Assembly: GCA_963588055.1 (NCBI GenBank)
Contig: CAVAGB010000001.1
Span: 10,092 to 74,091, forward strand
Reading direction: 5' to 3'
From: Erysipelotrichaceae bacterium
Lineage (GTDB): Bacteria; Bacillota_I; Bacilli_A; RFN20; CAG-826
DNA: 64,000 nt
Part shown: positions 7,725 to 25,181 of the stretch, piece by piece
Position numbering within the stretch: position 1 is the first letter of the stretch
Layout: every line of letters begins with the position of its first letter
Made by a program: the position numbers and the translations under genes
The notes under the pieces: generated by a model
The model's input: only the letters and a program-made list of their open reading frames with translations
What the model was told of the DNA's origin: nothing
Databases searched by the model: none

Positions 7725-9368
7725 ATGAAAGAAGATGTTTCACAAACGCCTTATAGAAGAGCCAAGACCTGGCACGTCGCGCTCGGCAGCATGACCGGCG
7801 TGATCCAGATGGCCTTCTATGTCCTTTTAGGCTACGCGGCCTACATCGGCAACCTCGGCTACGCAATCACGACCGCGATCGTCGGCGTGCTCATCACCCT
7901 CTCGCGCGTCTTCGACAGCGTCACCGACCCGCTAATCGCCATGATCATCGAGAAGTTCAACTCGAAGTTTGGCAAGATGCGCTTCTTCCTCATCATCGGC
8001 TGGGCCCTCATGGCCATCGCGACCACCTTGCTCTGCAACGTCTTCGCCGGGAAGTTCACCTTCGCGGACGAAGCCAGGACGCTCTCCAGCCCCTTAGGCG
8101 TCACCGTCTTCATCTTGATCTACGCTCTCTACATCATCGGCTACACCTTCGCCAGCTGCACTGGCAACATGATCGGGAACATCCTCACCAACGACCCCAA
8201 GCAGCGCCCGATGCTCGGCGTTTGGCAGACCATCTACTCCTATCTCTCCCCGATGATCGTCAGCATGGTCATCATCACCGCCCTTCTCCCGAAGTTCGGC
8301 AGCCCGACGGCCGATGGCACCGATTTCCAATGGACCAATCAGGTCTTCTTCTACGCGAACTTCCTGGTCGTCGGCGTTTCCTTCATCGCCCTAATCCTCA
8401 CCTGCATCGGCCTCACCCCTTACGACAAGCCCGAGAACTTCGTCGGCATCAAGAAGAACAAGGCCTCCTTCAAGGACATGTGGCTCCTGGTCAAAGAAAA
8501 CAAGGAGTTCCGCAGATACATCGTCGCCGCCAGCAGCGACAAGCTCGCCCAGACCGTCTCCTCCCAGTCGGTCATCTCCACTTTGCTCTATAGCGTCCTC
8601 CTCGGCAGCATGGTCGGGTCCTCGATCGTCTCCGTCGTCGCGATGCTCCCAAGCATCGTCTTCGCCTTCCTCGGCGCGAAGCTCGCCGGCAAGCAAGGCA
8701 ACCGCAAGGTCATGATCATCTGGTCGTGGATCTGCATCGCCTGGAACGTCCTCTTCTCCCTCTTCATCATGTTCGTCCCCGAGAAGAGCGCGAGCTCCTT
8801 CGGCTTCTCGCTCATCCTCTTCTTCATTTTGATGCTAGGCAACAACGCCGTCAAAATGGTCGTCAGCTCCGCCACCGGAGCCATGAGGATGGACGTCGTC
8901 GACTATGAGCTGGAAAGGTCCGGGCGCTATCTCCCCGCGACTGTCTCCGCCGCCTATTCCTTCATCGACAAGCTCATCAGCGCGCTCGCTCCGATGCTCG
9001 CTACCTTGCTGATCGGCTTCGTCGGATACACCGGGGACAAGATCCCGCAGGCTGGCGATGAGCTCACCGTTGGCATCCGCATCATCATCGTCGTCCTCTT
9101 CTGCGCTTTACCCATCATCGGCTGGCTGCTCAACATCCTCGCCATGCGCAAGTTCTCCCTCACCAAAGAGAGGATGGAGGAGATCCAAGAGAAGATCGCC
9201 GACGAGAAGAAAGCCGCCATCGCCGCTGAATCCGGCATGGCTGTTGCCCCCGCCGTCGAAAACGGGGATCCCGTCGACGCCTTGCAAGAGGAGGAGACGG
9301 AGCTAGTGAATCCCTCACCAGAGCCCGCCCCAATTGAAGAAAAGACGGAACCGAAGAAAGAAGACTAA
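7725..9368 (+). CDS. Glycoside-pentoside-hexuronide (GPH/MFS) family sugar:cation symporter
   Basis: About 12 predicted TM helices with the GPH-like N-terminal motif (LSRVFDSVTDPLIAMIIEK). It is the first gene of the glycosidase cluster. AAGGAG SD. Confidence 0.75.
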   Translation: MKEDVSQTPYRRAKTWHVALGSMTGVIQMAFYVLLGYAAYIGNLGYAITTAIVGVLITLSRVFDSVTDPLIAMIIEKFNSKFGKMRFFLIIGWALMAIATTLLCNVFAGKFTFADEARTLSSPLGVTVFILIYALYIIGYTFASCTGNMIGNILTNDPKQRPMLGVWQTIYSYLSPMIVSMVIITALLPKFGSPTADGTDFQWTNQVFFYANFLVVGVSFIALILTCIGLTPYDKPENFVGIKKNKASFKDMWLLVKENKEFRRYIVAASSDKLAQTVSSQSVISTLLYSVLLGSMVGSSIVSVVAMLPSIVFAFLGAKLAGKQGNRKVMIIWSWICIAWNVLFSLFIMFVPEKSASSFGFSLILFFILMLGNNAVKMVVSSATGAMRMDVVDYELERSGRYLPATVSAAYSFIDKLISALAPMLATLLIGFVGYTGDKIPQAGDELTVGIRIIIVVLFCALPIIGWLLNILAMRKFSLTKERMEEIQEKIADEKKAAIAAESGMAVAPAVENGDPVDALQEEETELVNPSPEPAPIEEKTEPKKED

Positions 9369-16481: not shown

Positions 16482-17757
16482 ATTTCTGATCGGCAGCTCG
16501 ACCGCCCCCCATCAGGTCGAGGGCAACAACGTCCATAGCGATTATTGGGCGCTGGAGAACATGACCTACACGGATTTCTGCGAGAAATCGCTGGACGCCG
16601 TGAACCATTACGCTCTTTACAAAGAGGACATCAAGATGATGAAAGAGGCAGGGCTTAACGCCTACCGCTTCGGCATCGAATGGGCGCGCATCGAGCCCAA
16701 AAAAGGCGAATTCGACGAGAAGGAGATCGCCCATTACAAAGACGTCCTGGAGGAATGCTTGAAGAACGGGATAGAGCCCGTGGTGACCCTCATGCATTTC
16801 ACCAGCCCCAAATGGCTCATCGACGAGGGCGGCTGGGAGAATCCCCAAGTGGTTTTCTACTTCAAGCGCTACGTAAAGAAAGTCGTCTCCGCGCTAGGGA
16901 AATACATGAGCTACGTCTGCACGATCAACGAGGCCAACATGGGCGTTCAAGTCTCTAGGCTTGAGGAACGCTACAAAAAGCAGTTCATGGCCGCCAAGAG
17001 CAGCAAGAGCCAAGAGGGCAGCGTCCAGATCGGCATGAACTTCGACAAGATCATGGCCAACATGCAGAAGAAGGCAATGGAAAGCGCCCAGATATTCGGC
17101 ACGCCGAAGCCAGAGACCTTCGTCTCCGCCCGCACCACCGAGGGGGATCTCCTCGTCTGCAAAGCCCATTTGGCCGCCAGAGAAGCCATCAAGAAGCTCT
17201 ATCCGAACATCAAAGTCGGAATCACCCTCTCCCTGCACGACATCCAATCCGTTTCAGGAGGTGAGGCGAACGCGAAGAAGGAATGGGACGATGAGCTCGA
17301 ACACTACATCCCTTTCATCGAGGGCGACGATTTCTTCGGGCTGCAGAACTACTCGCGCTCGCTCTTCGGGGAAGAGGGACTATTGCCCAACCCCGCGGGG
17401 GCGAAGCTCACTCAAATGGGCTATGAGAATTACCCGGAGGCACTAGGCCACGTCATAACCAGGGTCTACGACGAACTGCATAAGCCGATTCTCGTCACCG
17501 AGAACGGCATCGCGACCGCCAATGACGAGGAGAGGTGCGAGTTCATTAAGAAGGCTCTTTCCGGGCTCGAAGAGGCCCAAGGCAAAGGCGCTGAGGTCTT
17601 AGGTTATCTCCATTGGTCATTCTGCGACAACTTCGAATGGCAGAAGGGGTTCTCGATGCAATTCGGCCTCGTCTCCGTGGATAGGAAAGACAACTTCAAG
17701 CGGACCAAAAAGCCTAGTTTGGATTTGCTTGGGAGCTATGCGAAGCAGTTCAACTGA
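16474..17757 (+). CDS. GH1 beta-glucosidase/6-phospho-beta-glycosidase family
   Basis: APHQVEGN, YRFGIEWARIEP, TINEAN (acid/base) and LVTENGIA (nucleophile) are GH1 signatures. It overlaps the upstream gene by 8 nt. Confidence 0.85.
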   Translation: MSKFLIGSSTAPHQVEGNNVHSDYWALENMTYTDFCEKSLDAVNHYALYKEDIKMMKEAGLNAYRFGIEWARIEPKKGEFDEKEIAHYKDVLEECLKNGIEPVVTLMHFTSPKWLIDEGGWENPQVVFYFKRYVKKVVSALGKYMSYVCTINEANMGVQVSRLEERYKKQFMAAKSSKSQEGSVQIGMNFDKIMANMQKKAMESAQIFGTPKPETFVSARTTEGDLLVCKAHLAAREAIKKLYPNIKVGITLSLHDIQSVSGGEANAKKEWDDELEHYIPFIEGDDFFGLQNYSRSLFGEEGLLPNPAGAKLTQMGYENYPEALGHVITRVYDELHKPILVTENGIATANDEERCEFIKKALSGLEEAQGKGAEVLGYLHWSFCDNFEWQKGFSMQFGLVSVDRKDNFKRTKKPSLDLLGSYAKQFN

Positions 17758-17786
17758 GATGAGGACCTCCTCTCTAAACTAAAGAT

Positions 17787-17830
17787 AACCCTGCAAAAAG
17801 CCGATATCCTTAGCTTCTGCAGGGTTTTTA
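17787..17830 (+). terminator. Terminator of the glycosidase operon
   Basis: AACCCTGCA ... TGCAGGGTT is a 9-bp stem with a roughly 22-nt loop, followed by TTTTT. Confidence 0.5.
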
Positions 17831-17917
17831 GTTGGGCTTCTTTGTGCATGTTTGTGCATATTCAATAATTTTGTGTATGTTTGTGTATGTTTGGCTGTTT
17901 GAAGATAAGATTGCGCG

Positions 17918-19069
17918 ATGGCCGAGCTCACGGGCGAACTTGGATTCCTCTTTTTGTTTCTATGGAACGCGTTAAGGTCTAAAATCCCCGCGAACATGAA
18001 AAAAAGCAAAGCCTTGAATCTCACTTCCGAACGCAGGATCGAACTGCTCGGCCATTACTTCCAAATCGACCAGGAGAAGCGTTTGGTATACGTCAAACTT
18101 CGCTACGAGAAAGCCTCCGACATGCTTGAGGACAGCTTCGGCGAAGAAGGATGCGGGATGTTCAAGAACTCCGTTCTAGAGAGTATGGCCCAAATTTACG
18201 GCAACATACCGGTGGAATACCGCGCGGAGATTGAACTTTACGTGGGGGATTACGAGGGATACGATCCCAAGGTGATCCTTACCCGCTTCAACGAGGCGCT
18301 TGAGCTCAACAACTACCAAAGCCAAAGGGACAAGAAGAGGAGGTGGCTCCGCGCTTCTTTGCTCGTTCTCGCCGGCGTGGCCATCCTGGCCCTTATGGGC
18401 ATCGGGGTCTCCCAGCATTGGTTTGGATCGGAAGGAAGCGAGAAATCCTCCATCCTCACCGAGATCTTGGACATCGCCGGATGGGTCTTCATTTGGGAAG
18501 CCGTGACCGTGTGCTTCCTGCAGCCTAGCGCCTATGGCGTCTTGGGCGTGAAGATCCTCTCCAGGACGAGCGGCATCCGCCTCTACAAGAAAGGCGAAAG
18601 CGAGATCCTCGCCGAGGAAAACGGCGCGGCGATCGTCGCCAAATGGGAGGAGGAAGGCAAGCTGGAGAAAAGCGGCAAGCTTTCGTTGCTCTTATCTTCG
18701 TCCGCGTTCCTCGCGATGGGCTTCGCCTCTTTCTTCACGACCCTTTTCTCCTTGGGGGGCTATTCCGCGAGCGACTGGGAGTTCTGGATGATGCTCATCG
18801 GCGTCCTCATCGTCCTCACTTTGGACATATTGGGCGGCATCGGAGGGCTCTCTCGCTACCTTGGAAGAGGCCCTTTGAAGAACTTCGTCTTCGTGCTGGC
18901 CGCCTTCAACATCATCCAGCTCATCGTCACGATCGTCGGCTCCATCCAGTACCAGACCTGGCATTTCACCTTCTCCGCCATCGCGACCTTCATCCTGCAG
19001 ATCGGCTACGTCTATGGGGTGGTGATCGACATTCTGAAGAGCAAGAAGCCGCTTAAGGAATCGAAATAG
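17918..19069 (+). CDS. Hypothetical multi-pass membrane protein
   Basis: The ORF uses backbone-like GC3 codon usage and has about 6 hydrophobic segments. No family was recognised. The start is uncertain (ATG 17918 or ATG 17996, MKKSKALN), and neither has a clear SD. Confidence 0.5.
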   Translation: MAELTGELGFLFLFLWNALRSKIPANMKKSKALNLTSERRIELLGHYFQIDQEKRLVYVKLRYEKASDMLEDSFGEEGCGMFKNSVLESMAQIYGNIPVEYRAEIELYVGDYEGYDPKVILTRFNEALELNNYQSQRDKKRRWLRASLLVLAGVAILALMGIGVSQHWFGSEGSEKSSILTEILDIAGWVFIWEAVTVCFLQPSAYGVLGVKILSRTSGIRLYKKGESEILAEENGAAIVAKWEEEGKLEKSGKLSLLLSSSAFLAMGFASFFTTLFSLGGYSASDWEFWMMLIGVLIVLTLDILGGIGGLSRYLGRGPLKNFVFVLAAFNIIQLIVTIVGSIQYQTWHFTFSAIATFILQIGYVYGVVIDILKSKKPLKESK

Positions 19070-19161: not shown

Positions 19162-19239
19162 CGGGACGTAGCGTAGCTTGGTTATCGCGTCTGCTTTGGG
19201 AGCAGAAGACCACCGGTTCGAATCCGGTCGTCCCGACCA
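19162..19239 (+). tRNA. tRNA-Pro (TGG)
   Basis: Acceptor CGGGACG/CGTCCCG; anticodon arm TCTGC-TTTGGGA-GCAGA; T arm ACCGG-TTCGAAT-CCGGT; encoded CCA. Confidence 0.9.
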
Positions 19240-19250
19240 TTTGGAACGAT

Positions 19251-19275
19251 CCCAGCCTCCCTTGGCTGGGTTTTT
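19251..19275 (+). terminator. Rho-independent terminator after tRNA-Pro
   Basis: CCCAGCC-TCCCTT-GGCTGGG followed by TTTTT. Confidence 0.75.
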
Positions 19276-19451
19276 ATTGCAAAGAAGCAGCGGATGAACT
19301 TGCGATTCTCCGCTCGGCTCGCGTGATGCCAGAACGCTTTGAGACGCGAGCCTTCGGAGAATGCCGACGCTTAAACGCTCACTAAAACGATGAGAAGTTT
19401 TTACGGTCGTTTCCTTTCGGTTGGCTTTCCTCGCTTCCGCTTTAAATTGGG

Positions 19452-19895
19452 TTAGCGGCTTTTACCGAGATATTTTTTTGATGCTTCTATAACTTTGGGA
19501 TCTCGCCAAAACTGATAATAAGGGTCTTTCACCAGGTCTATTTTCAAGGCTTCGTTTGCAAAATCGTCAAACTCTCCTCCGCATTCGTCCCAACGCTTTT
19601 CAAGATCGACCTTCGAAAGGATATAGCCTAGCAGGTCGTAAGCGTCGTAGCCAGATGGGATGGTAAAGGAAAGGCCAACGTGCCTAATGAAGAGGTAGAC
19701 GAAATTGATGACGGAGTCTTCCGTTTTGCACTCGTTTTTTAGAAAACGATCGAAAAAGTAGAACACATCGTTCCAATCGTTGTCCCTTAGAATTTCTTCC
19801 GCGAGTCCGTCCGTCTCCTCTTTGCTTTTGTCATCCAAGGACAAAAAGTTCTCTGGAAATAGTCTCTTGCAAATTTCATCGTTGATTTTAATCAT
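19452..19895 (-). CDS. Hypothetical acidic cytoplasmic protein, immunity-protein-like by context
   Basis: 147 aa with no signal peptide or TM helix. Its start codon forms an ATGA overlap with the stop of the upstream toxin-like gene. A strong AAGGAGG SD is embedded in that gene's last codons. Confidence 0.45.
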   Translation of the reverse strand: MIKINDEICKRLFPENFLSLDDKSKEETDGLAEEILRDNDWNDVFYFFDRFLKNECKTEDSVINFVYLFIRHVGLSFTIPSGYDAYDLLGYILSKVDLEKRWDECGGEFDDFANEALKIDLVKDPYYQFWRDPKVIEASKKYLGKSR

Positions 19896-20371
19896 TTTTT
19901 CTTTCCTCCTTTAAACAAATAATCGGGTAATCTTCCAAAAGCTTCTCGTGCAACTTTAATTGACTTGATGTTGGGTTTGAAGTGCCCGCTCATGTGGTCG
20001 TATCCCGCAATCTTTCCTTTCTCAACACGAAGGATTCCGGCCATCTGCACGCGAGGGTTTTCTCCGCCTATTAATGTTGGATGCGGCGTGGCTTTCCCAT
20101 TCCAGCCATTGCCGTTTCGCTCCCCGATGATGATGTTTCCTTGAAGGTCAACAACATAGGTATAACTTTTGCTTTTGTCTTTGGAGAATAAATATTCTCC
20201 ACGTATGAAGCTATCAATGGTTCCTGCTGTAGGGTTTTTATCGTAAGTTCCGTTGTAAACACCTCTTTTGATGTCATACTCTTTCATTTCCGGGGTCACG
20301 CCATAATCTTTGGCGTAAGGTTGCGACTCTTCTTTGGTGCCGCTGTAGCTGCTCGAACTTCCGCTTCCCAT
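19892..20371 (-). CDS. Hypothetical protein resembling a free-standing polymorphic-toxin C-terminal domain
   Basis: 159 aa. A Gly/Ser-rich N-terminus (MGSGSSSSYSGT) is followed by a compact domain with HPTLIGG...AGILRVEKGKIAGYDHMSGHFKP. The start lies 1 nt after the DUF4417 stop (TGA-A-ATG). The family assignment is from memory only. Confidence 0.4.
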   Translation of the reverse strand: MGSGSSSSYSGTKEESQPYAKDYGVTPEMKEYDIKRGVYNGTYDKNPTAGTIDSFIRGEYLFSKDKSKSYTYVVDLQGNIIIGERNGNGWNGKATPHPTLIGGENPRVQMAGILRVEKGKIAGYDHMSGHFKPNIKSIKVAREAFGRLPDYLFKGGKKK

Positions 20372-20372
20372 T

Positions 20373-21020
20373 TCACCTACCCCCTTTCATTTTGGTGATG
20401 TAGGCTTCGTAATGAACGAATCTTGTTTCGGAAGCCAAATCGGCGAACACTTCATCAGGCATGGATCCGTGAACGAGAACAATTTGAGGTCGAAGCGTTT
20501 TGAGCATTGTCTCAAGGCCCAGCCTGAAGTAATACTTATTCTCTTCGCCCCTTATGCAACCATGGGTGCTTATGCAGACGATGTCATGTGAAGGCAAGGC
20601 GTCGAAGCAAAATTCAAAGCTTCTTTCGTCACCCCATCTGACGTTTGGGATGACGTATAGTCCGTTTTCCTGCAGATAGTAAGCGATTGCCCTGTTCATG
20701 TAGGTATTTGCTATTTGCAGGCACAGCGGCATGTCCCTATAAAGTGAGCAGTCGGGCGATATCACGCATTGAAATTGCGAGAGTTCGGGCAGATACCTGC
20801 TCGTTGCCGTCAAGACCTGCCTGAACCTTAGGTCATGCATGTAGAAGTCGACCGCAAGGCATCTGTCTTTAACCACGTTCCTTTTGTCAAAGGGAATCAT
20901 GTCCTTTGGGACGAGGAGCTCGTCGTGCCTTTCAAGCATGGGAAACTGATATTTCCCGACGAACGTAGCGCCTTTGACAAGGTAAGGCGCAAAACCATCA
21001 TCAACGATTGTTTTTCTCAT
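20373..21020 (-). CDS. DUF4417-like protein
   Basis: The ATG at 21020 lies 7 nt after GGAGG. The block VDFYMHDLRFRQV...ISPDCSLYRDMPLCLQIANTYMNRAIAYYLQENGLYVIPNVRWGDERSFEFCFDALP matches my recollection of the DUF4417 (PF14386) core. Confidence 0.55.
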   Translation of the reverse strand: MRKTIVDDGFAPYLVKGATFVGKYQFPMLERHDELLVPKDMIPFDKRNVVKDRCLAVDFYMHDLRFRQVLTATSRYLPELSQFQCVISPDCSLYRDMPLCLQIANTYMNRAIAYYLQENGLYVIPNVRWGDERSFEFCFDALPSHDIVCISTHGCIRGEENKYYFRLGLETMLKTLRPQIVLVHGSMPDEVFADLASETRFVHYEAYITKMKGGR

Positions 21021-21176
21021 TTTAACCTCCTGAAGAATCGGAACGCGTTGATTACGTTCGCGCCCCATTTTATAGGAGGGTTCAAAACGCTCGTATTTTG
21101 CCGAAATACATCGACGATGGCGAACAATTGGGCTTTTTTCGGCGTGATTAGTCGTTTAAGAGCGGCTTATGTATTT

Positions 21177-24100
21177 TCATAAAATAAATTTCATTTTGCT
21201 TTCTTTGTTAAACACCTCTTTTCCCAAAGCTCTAAGCAATTCGTTGGCTACCTGTGCTTCGACCTTCGATTCCAAAAGGAAGGCATAAAGCACATCCTCC
21301 TCAACGTATTTGGACAAAGCCGTGCCGTTTAGAGCCAGCAGATAATTCCTTTCTGGGCCCGGGAGCTTGAGCCCAATCAACAATTGGACCATGGTTTTCT
21401 TCGCCATGTGGGGCCTTTGGCCGTTCTTGATTTTGCTGAAGAGGTCTCTGCTCAGGAGGGTTTCGGCATTAAACTGGCTGTAATCCCATCCTCTCTCTTT
21501 GAACAACTTGGTCAGACATTCATCGAGAGAAGGAGGGCTGCCGTTTTGGAATTCGCTTTGGATGATCTTCATCTTGGAAAGGTAGCTTTCGTATTCGAGA
21601 TTCTCGTCATCGTTAAAGGGAGTCACGGCGATTCCGATGATGCGTCTCTCCTTGAATGCGTCTTCAAATTTCAATGGTTTGCCATCTTTCGTTGCAAAGG
21701 ATCCATCTGAGTAAGAGACGAAACCAGATGAGATCATTTTGCGGAAAGACTCGTCGTTCTTATAAAGCTCGAAAGCGTCTTTCAGCGAGACTTCCGTTTT
21801 GCTGTCTTGCTCTTTCAATTCCCTAAGCAGCCTCTGGTCCGGATAATCCATCAATCTTTCGATTTCTTCGGCTTTGGCGTTCCTCTTGGCGTTTTCTATG
21901 CGCTCATCAATGAATTCGGCTTGCGCGATGGATCCTCGATGCAAGAAGGCCCTTTTGAGCGACTCCAAACCGTTGATTTCCGACGCGTAGTGTTTTTTGG
22001 AGTCGTCGTACCAGCAAACTTTGCTTTTGAGAGCTCTTTCCAACACCTCTTTGCATTTCCCTTTTTGGTAGTATTCAATGATGATTTGGTTCTTATACGG
22101 ATTGCCGACTTGCCCCAAATAGCTGAACAACGTCAGCATTTTCTTGTCGTCCTTGTATCCCCGTTCGATATATGAGCTAATCCAATTAGACAACGTTTCC
22201 TTATCGATGTTGTCGGCCATCAGAATCTGCAATTTGACGGAGTGGAAATAGTCCGATTGCTTGTCTAAACATGTCTTCATGCATGCATCCATGAAAGCGG
22301 AGCAACAAGACTCGCTCAGTATGAAATTTTCCGCGCTTTCATAGTCAACTTTCCCTTCCACGAAATTCTTGGCGACGGTTTTGATGTAGTTTGGCTTTGC
22401 TGAAAGCAATTCTTTGAGCCTCTGGCTTCCATAATCAGTTTCGCCGCTGTCAATCAGAAAACCATATACTTCCGCCGCCAAATTCTGATTTAACTCGAGC
22501 AGTTCCTTAAACGCTCCGTTTTTGAAGAAGAAAGGGGAAAGGTAATTAGCGGCTATTTTGGAGTTGTATTTGCGTTTTCTGAAAAGGATTTCCACCAATT
22601 CGATGTAACTGATTCCGGATTTTTCTGAGATTTTCCTTAAGTTCAATACGCTCCTTGTCCATGATGTCGTGGTGCTCTTGTCCACTTTGGATTTGACCCA
22701 ATTGGCGAAACCAAAAGTATCGGGACAGTCCGTTTTGCTGAGATTTTCGTAGAAGAAATAGGAATATTGATCCCTAACATCTTTTTTCTCTATTTCGTTA
22801 ATCAGCGTATAGAGTTTGGCTTTTCCGCATAGATCAGCAAACCGGTCGACTACGTAGCCGGGGTTTATGCTGGTGCTCGAAAAGAAAGAAAACCAATCGG
22901 GGCAGCTCTCCTTTATATTTGGCACCAAAGCGGAGAGGAATTTTCTTTCTTCGTTTAGAAAATATAGGTCTAGGAAAACTTTACATCCTTGGAGAAGCAC
23001 CAAAAGCGAGTTTTCGTTTGCTTGGAAATATGCGGAAACGGCCTCGCTGTACTTCTTCTCAGCTTCGTCATAGTTTCCATTGGGCATGCCCGCTTCCAAA
23101 AGAATGTGGAAAAAGCCCAAATACTTTTGCTCGTTTTCGAAACCGAGTTCGTTGGCTTCGCGACCAAATTTTGTGATAAGAACCGCTTTGACCATTTGTT
23201 CTTTCTCTGATTCGCCCAAATGGCGGCCTATTGCGGCCATATCGTTTTTTATGATTTCCTCACAGCCTTTGACTTGCGAATGCTTTGCAAAATCGATGAC
23301 GGCGTCAATCGCTCCTGTGCAGTCGACGTCGAACAAAAAATCCCAGCACGCGGTCCGGAAGGGCAAAATATTCGGGATTTCATCATTTATGACGATAGAC
23401 CCGTATTTCAATTCATTCCGGCCGCTCCATTCCGAAAAATCTATCCGAAATTTCAGATAGGAGGAAACTAAACCGACGAACCTCTCGCGAGAGGCTTTTC
23501 TTTCTCTGACACAAGCGATGAAGTCCATGACGTATCTGAACTTCGCATTTACGTGCCATTCGTCAAGGGTATACGCGCCGCTTATTGCCTTGAGCACCTC
23601 TTCGGATTTGCTCTTAGCTTTTTCTAGCAGCTTTATTGCGCCTTTCATCGCGATCTGGGAATAGTCGGTAAGAGCTAAGTTCGCGAATATCCTCAGCAGC
23701 CATTGTGCGTCTTTGATCTCAGCGTAGTTTTCGACCCCGTCGTTGAAATCGGAGGCAACGTAAGCGGGAGCTACTTGCGCAAATGCTGCTTCAATCTCAT
23801 GCTTCGTCTCCAAATCCCCACTTAAAGCATCGCACGCCGCGATAACCTGATCCCTTATGTAGGAGAGCGTATCCGCGCTGAAATAGACGTGAAGAATCGT
23901 CTTGGCGGATTCGACGATTTGCTTCCTGTAGTATTTGAATCCGATCGCGAGAAGGTCGCTTATTTTCGCGAGCCTTTTTTCTATCAGCGTGTAATTTAGC
24001 ATATAGTCCGCAAAACATTGATCCGAAATTCGTATGACGCCTTTGTAATCATCGGCGATTTCCGCGTTGACCAGGAGATTGGCGTTTTCGATGAACCTTT

Positions 24101-24890
24101 GCTTGCTCATCCCCAGTTTTTGAAGTACTGGGGCGATGTAAAAAAGCTGATCCAGATAGACGCATCTGAAAAAGGCTATCAACCCAGCCGTGGCGGTTAA
24201 ATCATCTGACTTTTCTATCTTTGAAATTTCGTTTTTGTAAAAACGGTTAAGAACGTCTTTCTGATCAAAAAGCGAGGAGAACCCGTTTCTATCTTTAAGA
24301 GCACCATCGGCGGCTAGGAAAGCGACCCTTATGTTTCCCTTCGCAATTTCGGCAATTTGGTCCAACCATTTTTCGTTTTGTATCGGGGTGTTTGCCGATA
24401 TCGCCTCCTTCACGGATTTGTTCTCTAGCGGCTTCACCTCGTAAAATCTGATTGCGAGGTGGTCCCCTTCATTAAAGCATTCTTTCAAATAATCCCTTAC
24501 TGTGAATACGACTTTGATGTTTTCTGCGTTCTTGTATTTCAAGAAATCCACCAGCTCAGTTAGCTTGGAGTATTTATTGGCGTCATCGACGAAAATAACA
24601 TATTGGTTTTGTTCGTTGATTGAGGCTTCTAAATCTGCAATGTAATCGCTGAAACTTTTTGTGCACAGGACGATTGTGCCTGCGGCTGAAAGACAATAGT
24701 GTTCAATGGCCGCGACTGCGAGCCTGCTTTTTCCAACTCCGGATGGACCGGTGATTACAAGAAGGTCGCATTGGCGAATTTCGTTGCACAGCTCGCTAAC
24801 TTCCTTATCCCTTCCGACAAGCGTGGTCGTCAGAGATTCGCTGATGCCGTTTCTATGCTTTTTGAAATTGTTTAAATCATCAACTCCCAA
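21177..24890 (-). CDS. 1237-aa P-loop NTPase (STAND/AAA-like) with a long all-helical region and a C-terminal XRE-like HTH
   Basis: Walker A VITGPSGVGKSRLA, Walker B YVIFVDDAN and sensor-like VVFTVRD all lie in the first roughly 140 aa. About 900 aa of helical sequence follow. The C-terminus LTKLFKERGWDYSQFNAETLLSRDLFSKIKNGQRPHMAKKTMVQLLIGLKL resembles an HTH_3. TTG start, with no ATG in the first 100 codons. Confidence 0.6.
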   Translation of the reverse strand: MGVDDLNNFKKHRNGISESLTTTLVGRDKEVSELCNEIRQCDLLVITGPSGVGKSRLAVAAIEHYCLSAAGTIVLCTKSFSDYIADLEASINEQNQYVIFVDDANKYSKLTELVDFLKYKNAENIKVVFTVRDYLKECFNEGDHLAIRFYEVKPLENKSVKEAISANTPIQNEKWLDQIAEIAKGNIRVAFLAADGALKDRNGFSSLFDQKDVLNRFYKNEISKIEKSDDLTATAGLIAFFRCVYLDQLFYIAPVLQKLGMSKQRFIENANLLVNAEIADDYKGVIRISDQCFADYMLNYTLIEKRLAKISDLLAIGFKYYRKQIVESAKTILHVYFSADTLSYIRDQVIAACDALSGDLETKHEIEAAFAQVAPAYVASDFNDGVENYAEIKDAQWLLRIFANLALTDYSQIAMKGAIKLLEKAKSKSEEVLKAISGAYTLDEWHVNAKFRYVMDFIACVRERKASRERFVGLVSSYLKFRIDFSEWSGRNELKYGSIVINDEIPNILPFRTACWDFLFDVDCTGAIDAVIDFAKHSQVKGCEEIIKNDMAAIGRHLGESEKEQMVKAVLITKFGREANELGFENEQKYLGFFHILLEAGMPNGNYDEAEKKYSEAVSAYFQANENSLLVLLQGCKVFLDLYFLNEERKFLSALVPNIKESCPDWFSFFSSTSINPGYVVDRFADLCGKAKLYTLINEIEKKDVRDQYSYFFYENLSKTDCPDTFGFANWVKSKVDKSTTTSWTRSVLNLRKISEKSGISYIELVEILFRKRKYNSKIAANYLSPFFFKNGAFKELLELNQNLAAEVYGFLIDSGETDYGSQRLKELLSAKPNYIKTVAKNFVEGKVDYESAENFILSESCCSAFMDACMKTCLDKQSDYFHSVKLQILMADNIDKETLSNWISSYIERGYKDDKKMLTLFSYLGQVGNPYKNQIIIEYYQKGKCKEVLERALKSKVCWYDDSKKHYASEINGLESLKRAFLHRGSIAQAEFIDERIENAKRNAKAEEIERLMDYPDQRLLRELKEQDSKTEVSLKDAFELYKNDESFRKMISSGFVSYSDGSFATKDGKPLKFEDAFKERRIIGIAVTPFNDDENLEYESYLSKMKIIQSEFQNGSPPSLDECLTKLFKERGWDYSQFNAETLLSRDLFSKIKNGQRPHMAKKTMVQLLIGLKLPGPERNYLLALNGTALSKYVEEDVLYAFLLESKVEAQVANELLRALGKEVFNKESKMKFIL

Positions 24891-24916
24891 CGGCGTCCAA
24901 CCTCTCTTTCCAAGAG

Positions 24917-24925
24917 ATTATAACA
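24917..24925 (-). promoter_or_regulatory. Extended -10 element (TGTTATAAT on the minus strand) upstream of the giant NTPase gene
   Basis: The reverse complement of 24917-24925 is TG-T-TATAAT, about 27 nt upstream of the TTG start. The -35 is weak. Confidence 0.35.
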
Positions 24926-25132
24926 CGCTTGTTAGGCTGACTTTGGCCTTAATGGTCGCGTCGTTTGGCGTGAACGCGCGAATCGTTCAATAGATGGGGC
25001 CCAGAGTGCTGCAAAATGAAATTCCGAACGTAACTGTCTGGCCGATTTACGTAGAGGAGATGCTTTTGCAAAAGTTCAAATGGAGAATGCCCCTATTCAA
25101 AAATGGCGCGTGTTGCAAACCGGTCTTTAAAC

Positions 25133-25163
25133 TTGACTTAAAGCCAGCTTTAAGTTTTATGTT
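25133..25163 (+). promoter_or_regulatory. MerR-type promoter: TTGACT -35, 19-nt spacer containing a perfect 9-2-9 palindrome, TATGTT -10
   Basis: TTGACT lies at 25133-25138. The palindrome ACTTAAAGC-CA-GCTTTAAGT lies at 25136-25155. TATGTT lies at 25158-25163. It sits directly upstream of the flavodoxin-merR gene pair. Confidence 0.55.
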
Positions 25164-25181
25164 ATCCCCGGAGGCAAAAAA

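Follow-up and report, generated by a model that had tools for sequence, protein, structure and literature searches.

The question raised by this locus is whether a block of four genes beside a tRNA gene forms a conflict or defense system and, if so, how its toxic part would be controlled. We analyzed a 64,000-nt stretch of contig CAVAGB010000001.1 from an Erysipelotrichaceae bacterium (assembly GCA_963588055.1), which we call the window. Within it, an AT-rich island at positions 19240-25180, beside tRNA-Pro, carries the gene of a 1237-aa STAND NTPase (the giant) followed by an operon of three small genes (the trio), which encode a DUF4417 protein, a 159-aa basic protein and a 147-aa acidic protein. 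A preliminary description of the window had proposed that a large NTPase sensor and a cytotoxic module form an undescribed system here. We conclude that the locus is probably a regulated toxin-immunity conflict cassette that matches no known system, and we present evidence that the giant is probably the regulator of the operon.

Results

A predicted polymorphic-toxin domain in free-standing form

A profile built from 40 relatives of the 159-aa protein identified its domain in 910 representative clusters, in many of which it forms the extreme C-terminus of carriers as long as 7535 aa. The carriers sampled contained RHS repeats with DUF6531, the VgrG-type Phage_GPD domain or the cargo-loading domain eCIS_core of extracellular contractile injection systems (eCIS), and at several loci the toxin domain comes directly after the Rhs core end motif (RYY.P..GRF...D.Y.GD.LNLYAYC.NNPV.Y.DPSGY). 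The domain is thus shared with the tips of delivered proteins, which is what distinguishes polymorphic toxins, and the earlier suggestion that the 159-aa protein is a C-terminal domain of this kind without its delivery part proved sound by homology, since this domain is also the terminal part of Rhs, VgrG-like and eCIS-core proteins. The 159-aa protein is not itself a carrier, since no trafficking domain, signal peptide, or transmembrane, receptor-binding or translocation part was found on it, and its 257 close homologues are nearly all free-standing proteins of 155-175 aa. On this comparison we regard it as a genuine polymorphic-toxin domain and a predicted toxin.

Invariant residues of the toxin include Y72, R85, a P-H97-P-T-L-x-G block and G-H130, and the two invariant histidines together with the arginine would suit metal-independent phosphotransfer chemistry. 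An AlphaFold (AF2) model of the toxin, with a predicted local distance difference test score (pLDDT) of 87 and a predicted template-modeling score (pTM) of 0.83, gave no match in a Foldseek search against the PDB (best E=0.19, template-modeling (TM) score 0.12). An ADP-ribosyltransferase, a BECR-type RNase, a deaminase and a 2H fold had been considered for the toxin and were dropped because its model matched no PDB fold. Neither the toxin nor the 147-aa protein matched an entry in Pfam, NCBIfam, PHROGs, PADLOC or the PDB sequences, and member-by-member Pfam scans of both families at relaxed thresholds revealed no recurrent family.

The toxin begins with a conserved, disordered tail (MGSGxSxxYSGT...SQPYA) that is present only in the free-standing forms. 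Its first 14 codons (20330-20371, minus strand) are near-invariant across phyla, with G2, S3 and G4 conserved at ≥90% and S6 invariant, and the sequence conforms to M-G-x-x-x-S, the N-myristoylation consensus of eukaryotes. The resemblance may be coincidental, or the tail may serve in partner binding or processing.

DUF4417 and the 147-aa family accompany the toxin that is not delivered

In a scan of one genome per species, the toxin was present in 132 species, mostly Bacillota of the gut or rumen, with further occurrences in Treponema, Fibrobacter, Planctomycetota, Lentisphaerota, Bacteroidaceae, Bifidobacterium, Anaerolineae, Nostoc, Photorhabdus and Paenibacillus. The whole trio is conserved across Bacillota, Treponema, Fibrobacter, Planctomycetota, Bacteroidota, Bifidobacterium and others. 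For a survey of gene neighborhoods, open reading frames (ORFs) were called in 83 non-redundant loci, of which 75 have a free-standing and 8 a carrier-fused toxin; these were searched iteratively with the four window proteins and the neighbors were clustered. DUF4417 and the 147-aa family were each present in 63 of the 75 free-standing loci, and where present, DUF4417 is almost always immediately 5′ of the toxin and the 147-aa family immediately 3′. Both were absent from all 8 fused loci, and we therefore conclude that DUF4417 and the 147-aa protein go with the non-delivered toxin. The grouping of these genes made in the preliminary description is in this way reflected in their co-conservation, which extends to the giant, beside which a toxin module stands in 13 of 13 cases.

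The preliminary description had also assigned the 147-aa acidic protein (pI, the isoelectric point, of 4.6) to the immunity position, and this is where its family lies in the 63 stand-alone loci that contain it. The family evolves fast, with 1 invariant column in 28 sequences, as is typical of immunity proteins. Position, overlap with the toxin gene, charge and fast evolution all fit an immunity role; neutralization of the toxin by the 147-aa protein is a prediction. No solved structure resembling the family was found, and neither it nor the toxin of the window has a hydrophobic or transmembrane segment. The family also lacks a DNA-binding domain, as judged by searches for helix-turn-helix (HTH), ribbon-helix-helix and AbrB matches, and in this differs from the antitoxins of type II toxin-antitoxin (TA) systems.

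In all carrier-fused loci (8 of 8) and a few stand-alone ones (8 of 75), the immunity position is taken by a second family of ~126 aa, unrelated to the 147-aa family and unmatched in Pfam, which lies directly downstream of the toxin in most. Thus, the toxin domain has at least two non-homologous immunity families. A search of the window for the 126-aa family found no member.

Paired operator-like sites precede the toxin operon at giant loci

To ask how the operon might be controlled, we aligned the DNA between the giant stop codon and the next gene from 12 modules. Amid otherwise divergent sequence, two invariant 16-bp sites (TATTTY-N3-RAAATAC) were found in 12 of 12 regions, with a start-to-start spacing of 75 nt in the 11 other modules and 77 nt in the window, where the chance expectation for the operator-like pattern is 0.00. 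In 1.39 Mb of related loci, the pair with this spacing is confined to those that contain the giant, and it is absent from ~70 trio loci without a giant. At two loci (L001 and L009) toxin modules flank the giant on both sides, and the site pair lies upstream of both modules. The conserved sites precede the toxin operon rather than the giant's own gene, and at these two loci this also holds for the module on the upstream side of the giant.

The operon promoter is predicted from a -10 box that follows site 2 (Table 1). No -35 box was matched at the proper spacing from this -10 box; the right half of site 2 fills the -35 position. Consequently, the center of site 2 would lie ~39-41 nt upstream of the predicted transcription start, which puts site 2 at ~-40 and site 1 at ~-117. 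The simplest reading of this arrangement is that the HTH of the giant would bind both sites and control the operon promoter. By analogy, the geometry resembles that of activator-dependent promoters such as those of MalT, with repression as the less likely alternative.

Just 3′ of the predicted start, in the 5′ untranslated region (5′-UTR), lies an inverted repeat, GAACG-N9-CGTTC. Across 11 loci 98% of the alignment cells are paired and three of the five pairs have changed on both sides, with the variants GAACA/TGTTC, AAACA/TGTTT and GAGTG/CGCTC as well as G-U-compatible ones. The repeat could be either a stem-loop or a second operator.

One subclade of giant loci (L038:~9165-9200, L068, L071, L088 and L089; not the window) has an 8-codon mini-ORF (MKNxSKSP-stop) with its own GGAGGA ribosome-binding site between sites 1 and 2, which could be a leader peptide.

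The giant has the domain order of MalT

Residues 32-135 of the giant match nSTAND3 (PF20720; E=1e-7, 32.2 bits against a gathering threshold of 27.2), and Pfam searches with full-length family members returned nSTAND3 for 16 of 16 and NB-ARC for 13 of 16. The NTPase domain starts at about residue 20 and has a Walker A motif, GPSGVGKS (~48-55), and a Walker B motif, FVDDA (~100-104), within which G48, G51, G53-K54-S55 and D102-D103 are invariant across the aligned giants (GxxGxGKS; hhhhDD). The match to the family model and the intact Walker motifs place the giant among the STAND NTPases. A mid-region of ~900 aa without a family match leads to a Cro/C1-type HTH at the C-terminus (~1120-1190), where the last ~115 aa match HTH_26 in 9 of 12 members of the giant family (best E=1.3e-4). 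About 20 full-length homologues share 40-61% identity; the ORF of the window giant starts with TTG at 24890, and its relatives start with MSLKLDDL. Pfam, NCBIfam and PADLOC scans found no effector domain on the giant, and in place of matches to the curated Avs models of PADLOC there were only weak, unrelated matches to mad8, HerA and DrmC (E=4e-4 to 2e-3).

MalT and other large ATP-binding regulators of the LuxR family (LAL) consist of a STAND NTPase at the N-terminus, a large region for sensing and a LuxR-type HTH at the C-terminus, and have repeated sites upstream of a promoter without a -35 box, the proximal site lying at ~-40. The giant has the same domain order, and the sites predicted here are likewise repeated before a -35-less promoter with the proximal one at ~-40. 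The combination of a STAND NTPase with a C-terminal HTH is seen in the family (the 9 of 12 members noted above) and is weak in the window copy. However, the HTH of the giant is of the Cro/C1 type rather than the LuxR type, its NTPase belongs to nSTAND3 (the Avs5 type) and not to the MalT clade, and its target would be a toxin-immunity operon instead of a catabolic regulon. Because of the C-terminal HTH, the paired sites confined to giant loci and the location of site 2 at ~-40 of a promoter without a -35 box, we take the giant to be a MalT-like protein, predicted to act as both sensor and transcription factor for the operon, rather than an Avs-type executioner.

The trio is found behind interchangeable regulators

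The giant is present in 9 of the 83 surveyed loci. At all 13 giant loci (Table 1) a toxin module adjoins the giant, on the same strand save at L066, where a fragment of the giant lies on the opposite strand; at L014, L066 and L071 the giant is represented by short ORF fragments (244-430 aa). The giant cassettes are located at unrelated chromosomal positions, for example beside glycolysis genes, an MFS (major facilitator superfamily) transporter or LlaJI-type restriction genes, which fits a mobile unit. Thus, the adjacency of a large NTPase and a cytotoxic module, which the preliminary description had taken as a typical signature of anti-phage or abortive-infection loci, holds throughout; as to its mode of action, the giant looks like a DNA-binding operon regulator rather than a sensor with a direct effect on the toxin. 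It is an optional, exchangeable partner, present at about 1 in 8 trio loci.

To compare regulators, we analyzed the 54 stand-alone loci with enough upstream sequence. Upstream of the trio, 8 of these have the giant, 30 have an Xre-type HTH protein and/or an M78 peptidase, and 1 has both, so that the Xre/M78 regulators and the giant almost exclude each other (overlap at 1 of 8 giant loci). In PADLOC searches with representatives, the Xre protein matched the capH model (E=1e-10) and the M78 peptidase the capP model (E=4e-12). CapH and CapP, a repressor and a protease, together induce immune operons in response to DNA damage (bioRxiv 10.1101/2022.04.27.489752; PMC13228613), and by analogy this association suggests that the trio is an inducible immune effector operon.

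Nine loci have an LmuB-like ABC ATPase (DUF2326; PADLOC LmuB E=4e-14) and an ABC-3C CTD11-domain protein beside the trio, and the trio may therefore also act as a Lamassu-type system or be a neighbor of one. Other neighbors include type I and LlaJI-type restriction genes. From these comparisons, the trio appears to behave as an effector operon behind interchangeable sensor or regulator modules in a defense-island setting. A phage-borne trio was rejected, because the toxin family is near-absent from viral collections (a single marginal hit among 2.9 million viral contigs and 0 of 50,697 phage genomes). We infer an anti-phage or abortive-infection role from the CapH/CapP-like regulators, the Lamassu-like and restriction neighbors and the absence from phages.

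The toxin domain is linked to the RNA 2′-phosphotransferase Tpt1/KptA

A gene for the RNA 2′-phosphotransferase Tpt1/KptA (PF01885, E=6e-45) lies ≤7 kb from the toxin in 35 of the 83 loci (42%). In 20 of these 35 it is on the strand of the toxin and starts ~260-680 nt past the toxin stop codon, mostly directly after the immunity gene. Of the 8 Rhs-type loci, 4 have KptA, as do L088 and L089, which are complete five-gene cassettes. Because it occurs with both stand-alone and Rhs-type toxins, the linkage follows the toxin domain and not DUF4417. All 35 copies retain the Arg-His-Arg-Arg tetrad and the HGT motif, whose roles have been described by Shuman and colleagues, who call the substrate of bacterial Tpt1 a "longstanding conundrum" (PMC6333775). 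A search of the window for KptA found none.

Some immunity proteins are enzymes that undo the modification made by the toxin. By analogy, Tpt1 may repair the lesion made by this toxin, which would then be an RNA 2′-phosphate or a cleavage end processed to one.

DUF4417 has a predicted barrel-like fold and is common in phages

The DUF4417 protein of the window is an unambiguous member of PF14386 (E=8e-53, 179 bits against a cut-off of 28.9) and also matches phrog_8680 and phrog_940 in PHROGs. The mechanically called ORF is 16 codons too long at its 5′ end, with its ATG inside the predicted -10 box. The true start is most likely the second ATG, at 21020, because homologues and the gene caller begin there and a ribosome-binding site, AGGAGG, lies at 21026-31.

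An AF2 model of the protein (pLDDT 89) has an alpha/beta barrel-like fold. Foldseek matched it in the PDB only to weak, generic TIM barrels (EAL and PdxJ, TM ~0.4), and among viral models the next matches after true homologues were barrels of phage "queuine tRNA-ribosyltransferase" proteins, which resemble tRNA-guanine transglycosylase (TGT) and DpdA (probability 0.98-1.0, TM 0.41-0.53, sequence identity 10-13%). No TGT family was matched in Pfam and NCBIfam scans of the protein, which places it outside TGT at the sequence level. On the strength of the model, our best guess is that DUF4417 is a TIM-barrel-like, nucleic-acid-directed enzyme.

Homologues of DUF4417 were identified in 492 phage records. 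Many cluster-A-like mycobacteriophages, D29 among them, carry it as gene 1 or 2 at the left end of the genome, and in streptococcal phages it lies near the terminase; examples are LC730318.1 (D29) 584-979, NC_055858.1 453-956 and OL774873.1 30673-31170. Its phage annotations vary among "nuclease", "DNA modification methylase" and hypothetical protein, and fusions to a ParB-CTPase fold are frequent (bioRxiv 10.1101/2025.10.10.680097). None of the papers that we found to mention DUF4417 is a functional study of it.

At Elusimicrobia-type loci (L002-L004:10800-13773), a truncated second DUF4417 of 104 aa lies beside an AAA_14/DUF4143 ATPase, downstream of an intact trio, a Cys_rich_CPCC gene and KptA. 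This may be the remnant of a second module.

Composition, borders and gene content of the island

All 500-nt windows between 19250 and 25250 have a GC content of 0.41-0.49, compared with 0.52-0.61 on either side, and the island has 0.452 where the window as a whole has 0.539, the smallest value for any 5.94-kb stretch (mean 0.538, standard deviation 0.028). The GC content at third codon positions (GC3) is 0.46-0.57 in the four island genes and 0.70-0.85 in six flanking genes, so that the AT-rich island beside tRNA-Pro was correctly recognized in the preliminary description, as were its four minus-strand genes, whose ORFs are confirmed apart from the refined start of DUF4417. The three small genes are translationally coupled, through TGAAATG between DUF4417 and the 159-aa gene and through an ATGA overlap between the 159-aa and 147-aa genes. 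The island is predicted to be a foreign, horizontally acquired cassette because GC and GC3 depart from those of the flanks and the same cassette occurs at unrelated chromosomal sites elsewhere.

As the preliminary description had reported, no integrase, transposase, secretion gene or known effector was found in the island, nor was a lysis or export gene. No direct repeat derived from the 3′ end of tRNA-Pro was present at the far side of the island, and therefore integrase-mediated entry at tRNA-Pro is unsupported. A relative with an empty integration site was sought and none was found.

PADLOC gave no meaningful match for the four island proteins, and across the PADLOC, NCBIfam and PHROGs scans DUF4417 was the sole informative match. 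Searches of the PDB sequences with all four proteins, as single sequences and as family profiles, yielded nothing significant.

A second, shorter dip in GC content (0.46-0.48) lies to the left of the tRNA at 17500-18250, from a GH1 glycosidase gene to the start of a gene for a 383-aa membrane protein.

Table 1. Features of the island (positions in the window) and loci in other genomes that carry related elements.
Feature	Position or loci	Strand	Remarks
tRNA-Pro(tgg)	19162..19239	+	ARAGORN; left border of the island, outside the system
Terminator-like hairpin	19251-19270		3′ of tRNA-Pro
147-aa acidic protein	19452..19895	-	pI 4.6; immunity position; start overlaps toxin stop (ATGA)
159-aa basic protein	19892..20371	-	pI 9.5; predicted free-standing polymorphic-toxin/effector domain at residues ~20-155
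DUF4417 protein	20373..21020	-	PF14386; likely gene, 215 aa; mechanical ORF 20373-21068, 231 aa
5′-UTR inverted repeat	21041..21059	-	GAACG-N9-CGTTC; followed by ribosome-binding site
Predicted -10 box of operon promoter	21069..21074	-	TATAAA; conserved TAnAAT block after site 2 in the alignment
Operator-like site 2	21093..21109	-	GTATTTCGGCAAAATAC; near-perfect palindrome, from the alignment; 77 nt from site 1
Operator-like site 1	21171..21186	-	TATTTTATGAAAATAC; overlaps giant stop codon (21177-21179); invariant in 12 regions
Giant, 1237-aa STAND NTPase	21177..24890	-	nSTAND3/NB-ARC type (Pfam)
Giant loci	window, L001, L008, L009, L014, L038, L066, L068, L071, L088, L089, L090, L093		
Lamassu-type neighbors	L010, L017, L032, L043, L074, L078, L079 and others		upstream of DUF4417
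126-aa family	L014:3280-3660, L056, L061, L069, L070, L077, L080-L082, L085		right after toxin
KptA examples	L088:8962-9510, L089:11479-12030, L014:3657-4202, L056, L069		L056 and L069 (Rhs-type)

Discussion

A probable transcriptionally gated toxin-immunity cassette

Taken together, these results lead us to read the locus as a horizontally acquired, transcriptionally gated toxin-immunity cassette, an interpretation that we consider probable, with ample room for doubt. In the mechanism that we envisage, the ~900-aa middle of the giant would sense a trigger, probably a phage or mobile-element product, and ATP-dependent oligomerization would bring the HTH domains onto the two sites, which lie 75-77 bp apart and therefore on the same face of the helix. 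Site 2, at ~-40 of a promoter without a -35 box, would then switch the operon on or, less likely, relieve repression. The basic toxin, once expressed, would damage a conserved nucleic-acid target and stop growth. The target would most likely be RNA, and the lesion would probably carry a 2′-phosphate or cyclic phosphate, because catalytically intact Tpt1/KptA is linked to the toxin in 42% of the loci, Rhs-type ones included. The immunity protein would set a threshold or permit recovery, and DUF4417 may assist as a co-factor or co-effector that is directed at nucleic acids and belongs only to the non-secreted toxin. CapH/CapP-like pairs in the place of the giant and Lamassu-like genes nearby point to an inducible immune or conflict effector operon.

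Several observations weigh against this interpretation. The promoter and its start are predictions, a generic promoter scan missed this promoter, and geometry alone cannot separate an activator from a repressor. The HTH call is made from weak matches, with the window giant alone giving only a sub-threshold match to HTH_31. Most trio loci have no giant, and the four genes are thus not an obligate unit. The model of the toxin is unlike any known RNase or other fold, the likeness of DUF4417 to TGT/DpdA is at the fold level only (TM ~0.5), and since the window has no KptA, the idea of an RNA 2′-phosphate is borrowed from its relatives. Toxin and immunity protein are co-transcribed and coupled, and simple induction therefore need not be toxic, so that the mechanism needs unequal stability or stoichiometry of the two proteins, or a target outside the host. 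Toxicity, neutralization, DNA binding by the giant and a phage phenotype are all predicted from sequence.

A more specific version, to which we assign a small chance, is transcriptionally triggered abortive infection, in which the STAND ATPase would sense infection and, as a transcription factor, turn on the toxin operon, the toxin would make RNA 2′-phosphate lesions, KptA would be a second, repair-type immunity protein and DUF4417 a TGT-like co-effector that exchanges bases or acts as a glycosylase.

Alternative explanations

We considered the possibility that the cassette serves selfish addiction or kin competition, that is, that a domesticated module stabilizes the island in the manner of a TA system or protects the cell from the Rhs, type VI secretion system (T6SS) or eCIS toxins of its neighbors, with the giant and DUF4417 as accessories. 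The toxin domain is indeed widespread in delivered effectors, the cassette moves between genomes without recognizable mobility genes, and the small overlapping genes for a basic toxin and an acidic partner have a type II TA-like layout. However, delivered toxins use the 126-aa immunity family (8 of 8 fused loci, the 147-aa family in none), and therefore the 147-aa protein is not a simple cross-protection factor. Exchangeable STAND-HTH or CapH/CapP-like regulators would be unexpected for a plain addiction module, as would type I restriction-modification, LlaJI-type and Lamassu-like neighbors, and the strict linkage to DUF4417 is left unaccounted for. We consider addiction or competition unlikely as an account of the locus, if the best of the alternatives.

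A second alternative places the action of the giant at the protein level. As in Avs systems, the giant would oligomerize on a phage protein and activate DUF4417 or the toxin, or free the toxin from the immunity protein, by contact, and the HTH and the sites would serve only autoregulation or housekeeping. Its NTPase domain is nSTAND3, the Avs5 family (bioRxiv 10.1101/2025.07.08.663546); the giant itself carries no effector domain and adjoins a toxin module in every case; and its large unannotated, probably helical region could sense a ligand. Against this stand the absence of a PADLOC Avs match and of an N-terminal effector or effector-associated adaptor domain, and the location of the conserved sites in front of the toxin operon (including the upstream module of L001 and L009) rather than the giant gene. 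Moreover, the same trio is found with CapH/CapP-type transcriptional regulators in many more genomes, which argues for control at the level of transcription. The likelihood of an Avs-like mode of action thus appears slim.

A colicin-like logic, in which a stress-induced toxin would be released by lysis or another route, immunity would guard the producer and DUF4417 would aid maturation or release, is very improbable: co-transcription of toxin and immunity genes, an inducible promoter, the DNA-damage-type regulators of relatives and a tail (MGSGxSxxYSGT) confined to free-standing forms that could be a targeting or processing signal would suit it, but the toxin has only 159 aa without signal peptide or transmembrane, receptor-binding or translocation domain, a lysis or export gene is missing from the island, DUF4417 is a predicted soluble barrel-like enzyme common in phages beside DNA-packaging genes, and delivered forms of the domain need Rhs, VgrG or eCIS carriers.

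Relation to known systems

The transcriptionally gated cassette that we favor shares parts with several known systems. Like Avs5, the giant is a very large nSTAND3 protein on a mobile island with a linked, predicted cytotoxic module (bioRxiv 10.1101/2025.07.08.663546). It differs from Avs proteins in that it has neither a fused N-terminal effector nor an Avs model match, has a C-terminal HTH and DNA sites, and is accompanied by separate effector genes that also occur without it. With polymorphic toxin systems (Rhs, VgrG, eCIS) the locus shares a homologous toxin domain and a small acidic gene directly downstream; the differences are that the toxin here has no carrier or trafficking part, has its own N-terminal tail, is paired with the 147-aa rather than the 126-aa immunity family and is coupled to DUF4417.

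A likeness to CapH/CapP-controlled immune operons, such as those of CBASS (an anti-phage signaling system based on cyclic oligonucleotides), lies in the occurrence of the same trio behind an Xre HTH protein and an M78 (IrrE/ImmA-like) peptidase in ~30 related loci. In contrast, the window has neither, the STAND-HTH giant takes that place, and the downstream genes are unrelated to CBASS. DpdA, a TGT-like DNA transglycosylase, is partnered by the ParB-like ATPase DpdB. The fold of DUF4417 matches TGT/DpdA-like barrels, and its fusions to a ParB-CTPase in phages echo the DpdA-DpdB pair, but the match is at the fold level only and no 7-deazaguanine synthesis genes were seen nearby.

Neither the toxin family nor the 147-aa family nor this combination of genes is described in the papers and profiles searched. 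The view of the preliminary description that this is not a named system agrees with the profile, PADLOC and PDB searches, which returned no match to a described system or a housekeeping function.

Implications

The trio constitutes a conserved mobile gene set of three uncharacterized families: a toxin domain found in 910 clusters, its immunity family and DUF4417. The giant suggests that some antiviral-type STAND NTPases may be transcription factors that control effectors encoded in an operon apart from them, in place of carrying the effector within the protein, and for this a precise DNA motif is available. DUF4417, which is present in hundreds of phage genomes including that of D29, gains a cellular conflict context. 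Finally, the linkage of the toxin to KptA, in both its delivered and its stand-alone forms, offers a route to the question of the bacterial Tpt1 substrate; if the lesion is indeed an RNA 2′-phosphate, bacterial Tpt1 would gain a long-sought physiological substrate.

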